Origin: a virus
Taxonomy: Duplodnaviria; Caudoviricetes
Direction: 5' to 3' (one strand)
IMG/VR virus record: IMGVR_UViG_3300010346_001007
Location: 1 to 64,000 of that record
DNA length: 64,000 nucleotides
Shown here one piece after another: positions 37,725 to 42,782 of this stretch; positions within the stretch are counted from its first letter, which is position 1; every line of letters begins with the position of its first letter. The translations under genes were made by a program, and so were the position numbers. The notes below the pieces were generated by a model. That model was not told the origin of the DNA. It did not search any database and was given only the letters and a program-made list of their open reading frames with translations.

Positions 37725-38046
37725 TCAATTATATAGTTTAACTGATGAAGAATTGGGGATGGCGTTATATATCGTAAACCATTTGGAAGATTCTTCAAAT
37801 AAAATACAATATAATCCACATAATCTTACATGGTTTAAGCACGATGCACTAATAAAAAAATTTTTGCGTGCATTTGAACAAATAAAACCGGAGGGACATA
37901 CTATTTATGTTTCGTTAATGAAGAAATTAGGAGTACACATTGAGATAAATTCATCACCGACTAATGAATCCCAACGAATTGAAAGCCCGGAAAATAATAG
38001 ACTTGCATCAGAAACGAGTGTTCCACTTGATGATGCGTATGGCTAA
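37714..38046 (+). CDS. hypothetical protein
   Basis: ORF. Confidence 0.55.
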   Translation: MTLNQLYSLTDEELGMALYIVNHLEDSSNKIQYNPHNLTWFKHDALIKKFLRAFEQIKPEGHTIYVSLMKKLGVHIEINSSPTNESQRIESPENNRLASETSVPLDDAYG

Positions 38047-38443
38047 AGATGTGGTCGAGCGAGCACATCATCACGACATGTCAAAATTTGGAGAGGAAGA
38101 ATTTCCACATTATGCTAATGTTATAGAGGAATTTGAAAAATTTTCATTTGGAAGTGACGGATATAATTGTGCTAGAGAAAAATTAGGAATAGCACTTAAA
38201 CATCATTATGAAAATAATCGACACCATCCCGAGCATTTTCCTAATGGAATTGATGACATGAATTTAATTGATATATTAGAAATGATTTGTGATTGGAAAT
38301 CGGCCACACAAAATCATTCGGCAGTTAAAGGAGATATATCAAATTCGGTGGAGATATTATCTGAAAAATATAAAATAAATCCGCAACTTAAATCAATTAT
38401 TTATAATACATTGCGTGATTTTAAAGCTTTAAATAACGAATAG
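37964..38443 (+). CDS. DUF5662-like HD-type phosphohydrolase
   Basis: HDMSKF, HHYENNRHHPEH, EMICDW. Confidence 0.75.
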   Translation: MNPNELKARKIIDLHQKRVFHLMMRMAKDVVERAHHHDMSKFGEEEFPHYANVIEEFEKFSFGSDGYNCAREKLGIALKHHYENNRHHPEHFPNGIDDMNLIDILEMICDWKSATQNHSAVKGDISNSVEILSEKYKINPQLKSIIYNTLRDFKALNNE

Positions 38444-38522
38444 AAATAAAAAACATTTCAATTATTGGGATGTGAGTTTTATAGAATGAATGTTGCTACT
38501 GGAGAACTGAAAAAATACTAAT

Positions 38523-39914
38523 ATGTATCAGAATATATTTTATGACCGAAAAAATGAAACGGTTTATTTGTGGGACGATGCACAGGGAATGTTATGCATA
38601 CCATCTTCAAAATTTCATTATGCATATCGGCGTAAAGCAGGAGGAACTTATAAATCTCTTTATGGAGAAGAACTCGAAAAAGTAACAATATTTGATGCAC
38701 AAGACCCGTCATTATTTGAATCGGATGTAAGTATAGAAATGAAATGCTTACGAGATATGTATGAAGACAGTGACGAGCCATCCGTGGGCCATAGAATTGT
38801 TATTTTGGATATTGAAGTAGATTCAACAGGAGGATTTCCAAATATTGATACAGGAGATAAAACCATTACGGCAATTGCTATGTACAATCAATTGTCTGAC
38901 CGATATATTTCTTTAGTATTAGATCCCGAAAACAAAGTTAAAAATAAAATTGATGGAAATGTAGAAATTAAATCTTTTCGCACTGAAAAAAGTCTATTAT
39001 TAAAATTTTTAAATATATGGGATGAAATAGGACCTACGATTGTAAGCGGATGGAATATAATGTATTTTGATATTCCATATTTGTATAATCGATTAAGAAA
39101 TGTATTAGGAAAAAGTGGGGGGTATCGGTTATCTCCGGTAAAAATAGCATATCAGAATTCATTTACTAAAAAAGTAACTATTGCTGGGGTTTCTATTTTA
39201 GATTATTTAGAACTGTATAAAAAATTTATTGGTTCCATGAAATCATCGTGGGCTTTAGCTAGTGTGGCTAAAGATGAGGGTTTAAAAACCCAAAAACTGA
39301 CATATAAAGGCAGTTTAACGGATTTATATAAAAATGACATTCACAGATATATTGAATATAATTTAACTGACGTTAAAGTAGTCGTAGAACTGGATAAAAA
39401 GTATGATTTTATCTATTTGGCTCGTTCTGTATGTCATAAAGGACATGTACCATATGATAATTTTCAAATGTCAAGTAGGTTTATTGATGGAGCCATTTTG
39501 ATGTATTTGAGAAGGAATAAGTTAGTTGCTCCCAATAAACCACCGGAAGGAAGGGCCGAATATGAAGCGATGGAAAGAGAGGGAGAAATTGGATTTACCG
39601 GAGCGTTTGTAAAGTCTCCAGTGCCCGGTCTTTATGATTGGATTGCTTCGGCGGATATTACTTCGCTATATCCTAGTGTAATTATGACCTTGAATATAAG
39701 TCCCGAAAAAAAGCTAGGGAAGATCGAAAATTGGGATATGATGTCATTCCGGCGGGGAGAAATTCCCGAGGTACACTTAAATGGGAATAAATATTCCGCC
39801 GACCACTTCAAGAAGATGTTGTCAGATCATAAGATTGCCATATCAAGCAATGGAATAATTTACTCACAGCCTACAAGAAAGGTTGTAGGAAGAATTATTG
39901 AAAATGATACTTAA
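38523..39914 (+). CDS. polB: family B DNA polymerase, N-terminal part (3'-5' exonuclease + motif A)
   Basis: DIE, GWN..FDIPY, YNLTD, DITSLYPS. Confidence 0.95.
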   Translation: MYQNIFYDRKNETVYLWDDAQGMLCIPSSKFHYAYRRKAGGTYKSLYGEELEKVTIFDAQDPSLFESDVSIEMKCLRDMYEDSDEPSVGHRIVILDIEVDSTGGFPNIDTGDKTITAIAMYNQLSDRYISLVLDPENKVKNKIDGNVEIKSFRTEKSLLLKFLNIWDEIGPTIVSGWNIMYFDIPYLYNRLRNVLGKSGGYRLSPVKIAYQNSFTKKVTIAGVSILDYLELYKKFIGSMKSSWALASVAKDEGLKTQKLTYKGSLTDLYKNDIHRYIEYNLTDVKVVVELDKKYDFIYLARSVCHKGHVPYDNFQMSSRFIDGAILMYLRRNKLVAPNKPPEGRAEYEAMEREGEIGFTGAFVKSPVPGLYDWIASADITSLYPSVIMTLNISPEKKLGKIENWDMMSFRRGEIPEVHLNGNKYSADHFKKMLSDHKIAISSNGIIYSQPTRKVVGRIIENDT

Positions 39915-39956
39915 TGTTTTTGTTTTATATTCATAGTCATAATAAATGAAGGAAAT

Positions 39957-40640
39957 ATGAATACAAAAAAGTGGACTATAATTTGTAATAAGTGTGGAAA
40001 AATTAAAATCTATTCTACATATAGTGGATATTATGAGGCTAAGAGATTGGGCAGGATTTTTTGTAGATCTTGTGCCATTAAAAAACGATGGGAAAATAGT
40101 AAAGAAAGATCTAAATATGATCGTTTAATTAAGCAAGGACAGCGATTTGGGAAGTTGGTAGTTTTATCTAAAAAAATAGAAAGAGGAAATCAGGTTTTAT
40201 GTAAATGTGAATGCGGCAATTTACTTAAAAAAAGAGCTATTAGATTATTAACCGAAAATAATAATGGATGTCAAAAATGTTTGATTGGAGAATTAAATCA
40301 TCTTTGGAAAGGAGTTGGAAAAGTGCCCAAAATTGCTTTAACACGAATAAAACATCACGCTATTAGAACACATAAAGAATTTAATATTACACTTAAATAT
40401 TTATCAGAAATATTTGACAAACAGCGGGGAAAGTGTGCATTATCTGGAATGAATTTAAATTTTGGAGTTTCAAATATAATAGAACAAACTGCATCGTTAG
40501 ACAGAATTGATTCCTTAAAAGGATATATTAAAGGCAATGTGCAATGGGTTCATAAAAATGTTAACTGGATGAAGCAAGATTTTTCGGAAGATGAATTTTT
40601 ATCTCTGTGTAAAAAAATCGTGGAATATCGTAAAATATGA
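39957..40640 (+). CDS. free-standing His-Me finger (HNH-like) homing endonuclease
   Basis: CxxC pairs, GQRFGKLVV...CKCECG, CALSG, SLDRIDSLKGYIKGNVQWV...NWMK. Confidence 0.8.
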   Translation: MNTKKWTIICNKCGKIKIYSTYSGYYEAKRLGRIFCRSCAIKKRWENSKERSKYDRLIKQGQRFGKLVVLSKKIERGNQVLCKCECGNLLKKRAIRLLTENNNGCQKCLIGELNHLWKGVGKVPKIALTRIKHHAIRTHKEFNITLKYLSEIFDKQRGKCALSGMNLNFGVSNIIEQTASLDRIDSLKGYIKGNVQWVHKNVNWMKQDFSEDEFLSLCKKIVEYRKI

Positions 40641-41983
40641 TAAAAGTAGAAATAAATGGGAAATTATTAGAGTTTAATGATCGTGCATCTGTAGATGCAT
40701 ATCTCAAAACCCACAACATGGACGTAGATGAGGATGGTAATATATTCCAGGTAGAAGGACGAGGAGTAATTCCAACAATTCTTGATGTATGGTTTAAAGA
40801 ACGTCTTGAATATCGAAAGTTGCAAAAAAAATTTTCTGATGAGAACAATACAATTCAGTCGGAATTTTATAAGAGGCGACAGTTGAGACAGAAAATATTT
40901 CTTAATTCTATTTATGGAACTCTGGGACTTCCTGTATTCCGTTTTTATGACCGAGACAATGCCGAAGCGGTTACTATGTCGGGCCAAGAAATTATTCTCT
41001 CGACATCGAAATTAGTCAATGATGAATTTTTAAATAGATATAAAAATAAAAAGGCCACTCCACCAACAGATGATTTTATTGTATATATTGATACAGATTC
41101 AATTTATTTTTCATCATTGCAATTAGCCAAATTAGAAGGAAAAACTGATGATATGACTAAATATACGATTGATCTTGTACAACAAGTAGCAAATAAAATC
41201 AATCGGTTTTATGAATACATGGTTCCTCGTGTTTTTAATGTTGCGCCCGAATTTAACCGGATAAAAATTGTACCGGATGTTGTTGCTAAGAAAGCATTGT
41301 GGATAGTTAAAAAAAGATATGCCATGCTCAAAGTATTTGACATGGAAAAAATGAAGCCCGTAATGGGAAAAGGCGGAGAAGAAGGAAAACTAGAAGTAAA
41401 AGGAATTGATGTTGTACGTTCAAGTTATCCAGCAGCATTTCGAAAATTTTCAGCAAATATTCTTGAATCAATTCTGCGGGGAGTTTCCCGTGTAGAATTA
41501 GATGAACAGATTATGCAATTTGAAGAAAATATAGAAAAGTATGCTGTTGAAGAATTATGTAAAACGAGTTCCGTAAGATTTAAATCGAGAGATGGGAAAA
41601 CGGATTATAGGCCCATAGACAGAAAGCGGTTTCAGTTTGTTTTAGGATCTCCTCCTCAAGTTAAGGGGGCATTATCGTATAATGATTTATTGAAAGTATG
41701 GAAATTACATCGCCAATATGAATCAATTGGACATAGTGAAAAAATTAAATGGTGTTATTTACTTCCAAATGATTTTAATTTGAGTGAAATAGCATTTAAA
41801 GGAGATGATACCGATCCTGATAAAATTTTGGATTTCATTTCTCATCACATTGATCGTAGAAAAATGTATGAAAGAGAATTAAAGTCAAAATTGTCCGAAA
41901 TTTATGCGGTTATTGGATGGCCCTATCCGAATAGAGGTTCACAGTTGGCTGAAAATACATTTAATTTTGATGAAGAGTGGTAA
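40637..41983 (+). CDS. polB: family B DNA polymerase, C-terminal part (motifs B, C, thumb)
   Basis: GVIP, KIFLNSIYG, YIDTDS, KKRYA, KGIDVVRS. Confidence 0.95.
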   Translation: MIKVEINGKLLEFNDRASVDAYLKTHNMDVDEDGNIFQVEGRGVIPTILDVWFKERLEYRKLQKKFSDENNTIQSEFYKRRQLRQKIFLNSIYGTLGLPVFRFYDRDNAEAVTMSGQEIILSTSKLVNDEFLNRYKNKKATPPTDDFIVYIDTDSIYFSSLQLAKLEGKTDDMTKYTIDLVQQVANKINRFYEYMVPRVFNVAPEFNRIKIVPDVVAKKALWIVKKRYAMLKVFDMEKMKPVMGKGGEEGKLEVKGIDVVRSSYPAAFRKFSANILESILRGVSRVELDEQIMQFEENIEKYAVEELCKTSSVRFKSRDGKTDYRPIDRKRFQFVLGSPPQVKGALSYNDLLKVWKLHRQYESIGHSEKIKWCYLLPNDFNLSEIAFKGDDTDPDKILDFISHHIDRRKMYERELKSKLSEIYAVIGWPYPNRGSQLAENTFNFDEEW

Positions 41984-42035
41984 AATATAATAAATTGCCA
42001 ATATAGGATAAATTTGATATACTAAGAATTGTAAT

Positions 42036-42782
42036 ATGAAGAAACAAGTACTAGAAACATTTATTAAAAGATATTCGCTGGGGGGAGAAATAAATAAAGT
42101 TAAGTGGAAATATACGGCGGACGCAAAAACTTTACATGCTAGAGCAACGGCGGATGGAAGATGTTTTATTGCGGATGTGATTCTCCATAATTTCAGCGAT
42201 TTTGGGGATGAAGATATAGACATTTGTATTGGAGATACTGAGAAAGTAAAAGCGATGTTATCTCCATTTATAAGTGAAGATTTGCGTTTTACGATAAATA
42301 AAACCGAAAGTAGAGTATTGGGATTTTCTATATCCGACGATGATTGTGAAAGTTATTGTACCGCCGCCGATCCTTCTTCCATCGATCCGGTTGCTAAGAA
42401 TCTAAAAGAAATTCCTGATTATGATGCAATTATACCATTGAGCGGGGAATTTGTTGATAAATTTTTAAAAGCAAAAGGTGCATTAAAAGATGTAACAAAT
42501 TTTTCAGTAGGAATGAACAAAAGTGGCGAATTTGAAATGATAATTGGTTATATCACCGCTAATTCTAATCGAATTCGGTTAAAACCAACGTGTGATGATA
42601 AATATAATAAAGTTACACAGGCATTATCTTTTCCTATTAAAAATGTTGCCGAAGTATTTAAGGCAAATCGTGATATTTCAGATGGAAAATTATCTATTAA
42701 TAGTGCTGGAATTATACAAATATATTATTCAAATGCGGATTATACATGCACTTATTACCAATTTGCAAATAAGAAAATATAG
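42036..42782 (+). CDS. sliding clamp (T4 gp45-like)
   Basis: size, two-domain alpha/beta pattern, position between polymerase and clamp loader; TTGCCA-17-TATACT at 41995-42023. Confidence 0.7.
   Translation: MKKQVLETFIKRYSLGGEINKVKWKYTADAKTLHARATADGRCFIADVILHNFSDFGDEDIDICIGDTEKVKAMLSPFISEDLRFTINKTESRVLGFSISDDDCESYCTAADPSSIDPVAKNLKEIPDYDAIIPLSGEFVDKFLKAKGALKDVTNFSVGMNKSGEFEMIIGYITANSNRIRLKPTCDDKYNKVTQALSFPIKNVAEVFKANRDISDGKLSINSAGIIQIYYSNADYTCTYYQFANKKI

Follow-up and report, generated by a model that had tools for sequence, protein, structure and literature searches.

How an essential enzyme survives when a selfish endonuclease has cut its gene, with neither an intron nor an intein at the site, is known in detail only for the NrdA protein of Aeromonas phage Aeh1. 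The same question is raised by a 64,000-nucleotide (nt) stretch of virus DNA (Duplodnaviria; Caudoviricetes), positions 1 to 64,000 of IMG/VR virus record IMGVR_UViG_3300010346_001007, which we refer to as the window. The DNA polymerase gene (polB) of the window encodes a family B enzyme of the T4/RB69 type and consists of two open reading frames (ORFs) with an endonuclease ORF between them. The product of the first ORF (N-part) ends in a short tail and that of the second (C-part) begins with a short head. A sequence-only reading of this locus had proposed that tail and head together form a duplicated polymerase subdomain that holds the two halves of the enzyme together. Having compared the locus with its relatives, we lean towards the view that a cassette sits in a T4-type polB gene which is expressed as two chains, that the tail of the first chain completes the head of the second in trans, and that the domain so rebuilt tethers the halves.

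A polymerase gene in two pieces

Taken together the two ORFs specify a gp43-type family B polymerase, since an exonuclease domain and motifs A (DxxSLYPS), B (KxxxNSxYG) and C (YxDTDS) occur in order across them. The halves gave the Pfam matches PF03104 and PF00136, and both matched phrog_262 (9.5e-92 and 2.5e-67), the N-part at profile positions 17-470 and the C-part at positions 442-850, so that the halves overlap on the profile. The N-part sequence also matched RB69 gp43 residues 179-433 (E 5e-46). Hence the division of the polymerase into two ORFs split by an endonuclease gene was confirmed, with ORF coordinates as claimed in the earlier reading and with Pfam and PHROG in agreement. The start codon of the C-part overlaps the stop codon of the endonuclease by 4 nt (ATGA). 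In relatives polB is one uninterrupted gene; that of the window, divided by an endonuclease ORF with neither intron nor intein, is thus a gene in pieces. We found no second polB in the 119-kb IMG/VR virus record. A DNA contig from a public sequencing run, which may be that of the source sample, spans positions 38300-41718 with one difference, and thus the layout is not an accident of assembly.

Tail and head as a second copy of a polymerase subdomain

The intact relatives comprise the nearest cultured relative, Microcystis phage Mel-JY01 (848-aa PolB, 43% identity; aa, amino acids), and ~85 uncultured relatives. Alignment to these polymerases showed one contiguous copy of a ~57-aa subdomain after motif A in every case, located between motif A and the fingers and having the pattern ISPETKxGKIxxWD ... 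ExxIxG ... FKKxx ... SxSSNGVxYRQDxRGVxPxILxxWF. The N-part of the window contains a whole copy of this subdomain (aa 394-449), which is followed by the 14-aa tail PTRKVVGRIIENDT, and the C-part opens with MIKVEINGKLLEF..VDAYLK..VDEDGNIFQVEGR and reaches GVIPTILDVWF only afterwards. The copy within the N-part (copy 1) is orthologous to the single copy of the intact relatives, and the DNA homology between sister pairs of split and intact genes (see below) runs through it. Copy 1 is therefore the resident copy.

Plain BLASTP of the end of the N-part against the start of the C-part gave no significant similarity, and profiles were needed. A profile built from 26 C-part heads had only one local match to an 847-column profile of intact PolBs, at columns 422-449 (P 8e-4). 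A composite of tail plus head from eight loci aligned globally to columns 391-449 (P 3.7e-5), the alignment running from PETKxGKI to NGVLYxxDKx, that is, from the proline of ISPE to just before GVIP. The 7-column gap in this alignment sits exactly at the break (stop, endonuclease, start). The placement was reproduced when 13 PolBs with inteins served as a second template set (P 2e-4 local, 1.7e-5 global). A 10-residue tail profile, moved stepwise over the complete PolB with a single gap permitted, fitted by far best at PETKVGKIE, the strand that follows motif A. The profile and sliding results thus place the beginning of copy 2 in the N-part tail and its continuation in the C-part head. Judged by these alignments, tail plus head is a second, diverged copy of the resident subdomain that is broken in its first loop. 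The duplication after motif A and the course of copy 2 across the break, both put forward by the sequence-only reading, are borne out. A simpler interpretation, a 47-aa overlap in which the tail is a decayed copy of GVIPTIL, was dropped after the DNA comparison of the sister pairs and the profile alignments.

The arrangement recurs in related proteins. The motif PxKKI[IV]GK[IV][IL], exact or near-exact, ends all 23 of the stand-alone N-parts examined, about 20 stand-alone N-parts terminate with SSNGVxY[KR]QPxKKI[IV]GK[IV][IL] followed by a stop codon, and many stand-alone C-parts (37-69% identity) begin with the same head. A fused tandem-copy form having the tail motif and GVIP in one ORF was absent from the protein sets examined, and no single-copy gene cleanly split at its a-b loop was found there either.

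A mobile cassette of tail, endonuclease and head

Split polB genes were present in 5 of ~90 viral loci, and eight distinct cassettes were recovered by scanning viral and metagenome contigs for DNA patterns of the tail. An endonuclease homologue of the HNH type lay between tail and head in 8 of 8 cassettes; a split form devoid of endonuclease was not found among those scanned. A maximum-likelihood tree was built on the polymerase body of 5 split and 35 intact forms, including the resident subdomain but neither tail nor head. The five split forms were scattered among the intact forms, and five separate gains or losses were required. Split L036 was the sister of intact L042 (branch lengths 0.03-0.05), and split L003 was the sister of intact L004.

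These sister pairs delimit the inserted DNA. Homology between L036 and L042 (84-88% DNA identity) breaks off once the NGVxY codons are passed and returns directly behind the GVxP..L..W segment; 1206 nt stand where the intact gene has 41 nt. The more diverged L003 and L004 (~73% identity) also lose homology just after the NGVxY codons and regain it at GVVP, with 993 nt in place of 15 nt. In both pairs tail and head are outside the DNA homology shared with the intact sister. What moves horizontally is one cassette that comprises tail, endonuclease and head, and these arrive or leave together. On this point the sequence-only reading, which described a tandemly duplicated subdomain, needs correcting: copy 2 is not a resident tandem duplication of this genome, and the tail-endonuclease-head unit is missing from very close sisters. 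Identity among the endonucleases has dropped to ~44%, a divergence comparable to that of their hosts, and hence the arrangement is old and stable.

The endonuclease matched phrog_3322 (4e-25) and the HNH family phrog_3118 (5e-12) and gave no Pfam match even at E<=1. Homologues with 40-74% identity are found at the same position in every split relative, and at greater distance its relatives occur as free-standing endonucleases in many phages. Given the five independent changes in presence or absence on the tree, the endonuclease is probably mobile. A homologue of the cassette endonuclease (39% identity) is also found directly upstream of an intact single-copy polB, outside the gene (L007:4059-4703), and two more endonuclease-like ORFs precede the N-part of L003 (1171-1725 and 3089-3811). 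Some cassettes contain an additional small ORF between tail and endonuclease (L036:3992-4390, L037:4073-4375 and L003:5174-5383). These ORFs are mutually unrelated, that of L036 being a member of the YopX family (Pfam PF09643, 1e-16).

No splicing element at the break

A single polypeptide could in principle be restored by RNA splicing, protein splicing, ribosomal bypass or frameshifting, and there are precedents close at hand: related PolBs carry inteins (Pfam PF14890; a LAGLIDADG insert in L104) and phage 25 has a group I intron in its gene 43B. An Rfam scan (cmscan, E<=1) of positions 38000-42500 gave no match, to a group I intron or any other family, and the DNA around the endonuclease that is not within an ORF amounts to only 42 nt on one side and -4 nt on the other. 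Intein families had no match in either PolB half (Pfam). Likewise, hhalign of the tail and head profiles against the 13 intein-bearing PolBs matched the PolB subdomain but not the intein part. The residue that follows NGxxY is S, K or R, which is then followed by QP, and the head ends in GR before GVIP. Hence, the splicing residues are absent: the tail has no conserved first Cys or Ser, and the head does not terminate in Asn with Cys, Ser or Thr as the next residue. Moreover, tail and head total only 56 aa and do not constitute a split intein. The intervening DNA varies among relatives from 720 to ~1000 nt and differs in gene content, sometimes including an extra unrelated ORF, which rules out a hop or frameshift as the general solution. 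We consider restoration of a single chain to be highly improbable, and the earlier claim that the fractured polymerase has neither intron nor intein stands.

Selection, charge and predicted folds of tail and head

Comparison of the 10 tail codons of L036 and L037 gave four synonymous and no non-synonymous differences. For tail plus head the ratio of non-synonymous to synonymous substitution rates (dN/dS, Nei-Gojobori) was 0.17-0.27, although dS was above 1 and thus saturated, and dN was no higher than that of the resident subdomain. By this measure tail and head are under purifying selection. Both segments are also charged in a manner that the resident copy is not. The mean net charge of the tail was +3.1 versus +0.2 for resident strand a, and that of the head was -4.3, whereas the resident copy had -0.4 and intact genes -0.3, in accord with the earlier description of a basic tail and an acidic C-part head.

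The C-part modelled alone with AlphaFold2 (AF2) gave a mean predicted local distance difference test score (pLDDT) of 88.7, with the head folded as hairpin, helix and hairpin (pLDDT 79-91). The secondary structure elements of the head were strands (E) 2-6 and 9-13, helix (H) 16-25, and strands 28-30 and 36-38; the first strand of the subdomain was missing. Residues 38-447 of the C-part model superposed on RB69 gp43 residues 464-903 (Z ~24.5), which puts the break at the palm/fingers border. The N-part modelled alone had a pLDDT of 84.5, the motif A region (residues 354-393) falling below 50 in the absence of the partner chain. Copy 1 in this model was composed of strand a, a short helix, a beta-hairpin, a helix and a second beta-hairpin (E397-401, H406-410, E416-419, E422-425, H426-434, E438-440 and E445-448). 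The tail was coil with a pLDDT of ~52 and was predicted to be disordered.

In a rival, swapped topology, resident strand a would pair in trans with the head and the tail would fold in cis onto the resident hairpin-helix-hairpin, the outcome being a rebuilt canonical subdomain plus a circularly permuted extra domain. Such pairing would satisfy both chain anchors (the motif A helix and GVIP) exactly as in the intact enzyme, and the last hairpin of the head overlays RB69 hairpin 451-463 in 8 among the 50 structural alignments listed. Tandem duplication is also a classic route to circular permutants. Nevertheless, contact between the two is the best explanation for a tail that is basic and a head that is acidic. 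Moreover, the SxSSNG signature has been lost from the head, which reads DxDGN, and hence the head looks like an accessory copy and not a replacement for the resident one. We therefore regard the swapped topology as distinctly improbable.

A proposed clasp and its weight

The pairing that we prefer, tail with head, starts from a homing-endonuclease cassette inserted into an otherwise ordinary polB gene, its site being flanked by the last strand (NGxxY) of the small alpha/beta subdomain and by GVIP, the motif through which the chain enters the fingers. Read 5' to 3', the cassette holds ~14 codons for the basic strand (PxKKIVGKII) closed by a stop, then the HNH gene, a coupled start codon and ~42 codons of acidic head. 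Two chains would be translated from one operon by use of a putative ribosome-binding site in the spacer ahead of the endonuclease, with the start of the C-part coupled to the endonuclease stop. The basic tail of the N-part would then supply the missing first strand to the acidic head in trans, with the opposite charges helping. Docking and strand pairing of this kind are suggested by the purifying selection, the charge complementarity, the disorder of the lone tail and the folding of a head that lacks its first strand. The rebuilt extra domain would hang off the palm/fingers border with its two ends adjacent and would tether the palm halves beside their native interface, such that motifs A and C form one active site. 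That the halves assemble into an active enzyme is suggested, indirectly, by the lack of another polB in the record and by the purifying selection that acts on each of them. In this scheme the endonuclease would carry its own clasp, which would render insertion into an essential gene nearly harmless, and would home into intact alleles, the likely target being the NGVVYRQDxRGVVP junction. The suggestion in the earlier reading that the inserted copy could be a tolerated site for an endonuclease is upheld as a possibility. Whether the cassette is in general a non-splicing portable protein clasp, an extra copy of a host subdomain that accommodates an endonuclease gene in a loop and replaces the lost covalent link by strand complementation, seems to us evenly balanced.

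The spacer is conserved in L005, and in L003, L036 and L037 the next ORF begins 1 nt past the N-part stop codon. Scanning for promoters and terminators yielded no excess of sites over shuffled sequence. The spacer contains a near-match to the T4 late promoter that is not conserved in L005.

Several points weigh against this proposal. The likeness of the tail to strand a involves about 10 residues, and when the tail was slid without gaps the strand-a site ranked fifth and the positional GVIP segment eighth, so that neither reading is singled out by the 10-residue tail itself. As to expression of the two chains, contigs of an anaerobic-digester metatranscriptome match positions 38823-39151 (N-part) and 40383-40564 (endonuclease) with 99-100% identity, and hence the phage or its DNA was present in that RNA library; the two RNA libraries matched look like one data set filed twice, and DNA carry-over is possible. 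These contigs cross neither junction and contain no joints, and are thus neutral on splicing. Finally, the large native interface of the palm halves might suffice without a clasp, and in Aeh1 the NrdA tails are dispensable for heterodimer formation (PMC3045599).

The last two points are also those that favour a passive scar, in which tail and head would be co-carried exon flanks or a by-product of illegitimate recombination and would be dispensable, the native palm interface being sufficient. Free-standing endonucleases are known to co-convert flanking sequence (PMC2988022), and the disorder of the N-part motif A region in the absence of its partner points to a large mutual folding interface. 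A scar does not readily account for the dN/dS of tail and head (subject to the saturation of dS), their amino acids having been kept through synonymous changes, nor for a charge complementarity that is missing in the resident copy, nor for the retention of both segments in all eight cassettes despite the divergence of the endonucleases. We consider a passive scar unlikely, albeit the likeliest of the rivals. The close sister pairs with and without the cassette make a clean experiment possible in the same polymerase background and, if the clasp works, split-protein complementation would gain in tail and head (14 aa and 42 aa) a compact pair of natural origin.

Features of the locus and its neighbourhood

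The features of the locus are collected in Table 1.

Table 1 Positions of the split polymerase gene, the cassette and their parts in the window
Feature	Position	Strand	Description
PolB N-part	38523-39914	+	463 aa; N-terminal and exonuclease domains and first palm half including motif A; Pfam, PHROG and RB69 matches
Motif A, DITSLYPS	39654-39677	+	in PolB N-part
Resident copy 1 of the post-motif-A subdomain	39702-39869	+	N-part aa 394-449, PEKKLGKIENWD...SSNGIIYSQ
Cassette-borne N-tail	39870-39911	+	N-part aa 450-463, PTRKVVGRIIENDT; interpreted as the first strand (a') of copy 2
Spacer	39915-39956	+	42 nt; putative ribosome-binding site GAAGGAAA ahead of the endonuclease start
Free-standing HNH-type homing endonuclease (predicted)	39957-40640	+	227 aa
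Endonuclease HNH-like core, SLDRIDS...NVNWMK	40494-40574	+	N-terminal half of the protein carries CxxC pairs
Cassette-borne C-head	40637-40762	+	C-part aa 1-42, MIKVEING...DGNIFQVEGR; read as copy 2 without its first strand
PolB C-part	40637-41983	+	448 aa; head, GVIPTILDVWF, fingers, second palm half, thumb
GVIPTILDVWF	40763-40795	+	in PolB C-part
Motif B	40892-40918	+	fingers, PolB C-part
Motif C, YIDTDS	41084-41101	+	second palm half, PolB C-part

Clamp-loader genes lie downstream of polB, as in T4 (Pfam). Between polB and the clamp-loader ATPase gene is an ORF of 248 aa (42036-42782) that has no Pfam or PHROG match; its position and the conserved homologues in L104 and L106 suggest that its product is a divergent sliding clamp. 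The 119-kb source record has a CheckV completeness of 34%, and the phage is therefore probably very large. Matching sequencing runs indicate a wastewater or anaerobic digester habitat.

Related PolBs have a second break site located just before motif C (YxDTDS), as seen in L016:1-2739, L017:4744-7297, P0129, P0143 and P0146. In L016 another endonuclease ORF is present between the halves at this site. The N-part tails at the pre-motif-C break are conserved (..ELGRKYKIxYxDGxxEVxY..) and the heads are short (MRIKKITKK..); these segments could be another docking module or might be of a dead-intein type. The split PolB N-part of L104 (L104:3157-5595; also present in L107 and L108) is 813 aa in length owing to a ~335-aa insert in the exonuclease region which has a LAGLIDADG-like motif (LAGLIYTDG) and is intein-like. 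One polymerase gene thus holds both an intein-like insert and the endonuclease cassette.

Comparison with known systems

The nrdA gene of phage Aeh1 was reportedly described by Friedrich in 2007 as split in the order nrdA-a, mobE, nrdA-b. The resemblance to the present locus is close, in that a free-standing HNH-type endonuclease splits the gene of an essential enzyme with no intron or intein, and the new termini are basic and acidic. The Aeh1 enzyme has one basic and one acidic tail, both derived from the cassette and required for activity (Crona et al. 2011, PMC3045599). The differences are that the host gene here is polB and not nrdA, that the cassette occurs in at least eight phage lineages at one site, and that the Aeh1 tails act on the dimerisation of heterodimers and not on heterodimer formation. 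Moreover, the Aeh1 tails have no detectable homology and their origin is untraceable, whereas tail and head here read as a split copy of a subdomain of the host enzyme, a legible origin by duplication and splitting in a loop.

A T4-type PolB made as two chains with a free-standing endonuclease gene between the halves is also found in Aeromonas phage 25. According to the account given in PMC2988022, the split gp43A and gp43B chains of phages 25 and 44RR co-purify and are active (Petrov, Ratnayaka and Karam 2010, J Mol Biol 395:457). However, the break of phage 25 is inside the fingers, ~40 residues after GVLP, rather than at the palm/fingers border, its endonuclease is of the GIY-YIG (Seg-like) type and its gene 43B also holds a group I intron. 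No duplicated subdomain was seen at the split termini of phages 25 and 44RR.

Our literature search found no description of a cassette-borne split copy of a host subdomain. The nearest parallel in gene order is given by fractured genes in which split inteins surround a free-standing endonuclease and opposite charges were proposed to bring the extensions together (Dassa et al. 2009, PMC2677866). There, as here, the order is host N-part plus extension, endonuclease, and extension plus host C-part. The extensions of the present locus differ in having no Hint fold and no splicing residues, in totalling 56 aa, and in being polymerase-derived, and the product would remain two chains. If our proposal is correct, selfish endonucleases, which occupy essential genes by means of introns or inteins, would have a third means of doing so, and the unexplained 'tails' of Aeh1 NrdA and T4 gp39/gp60 would have an origin that can be traced.

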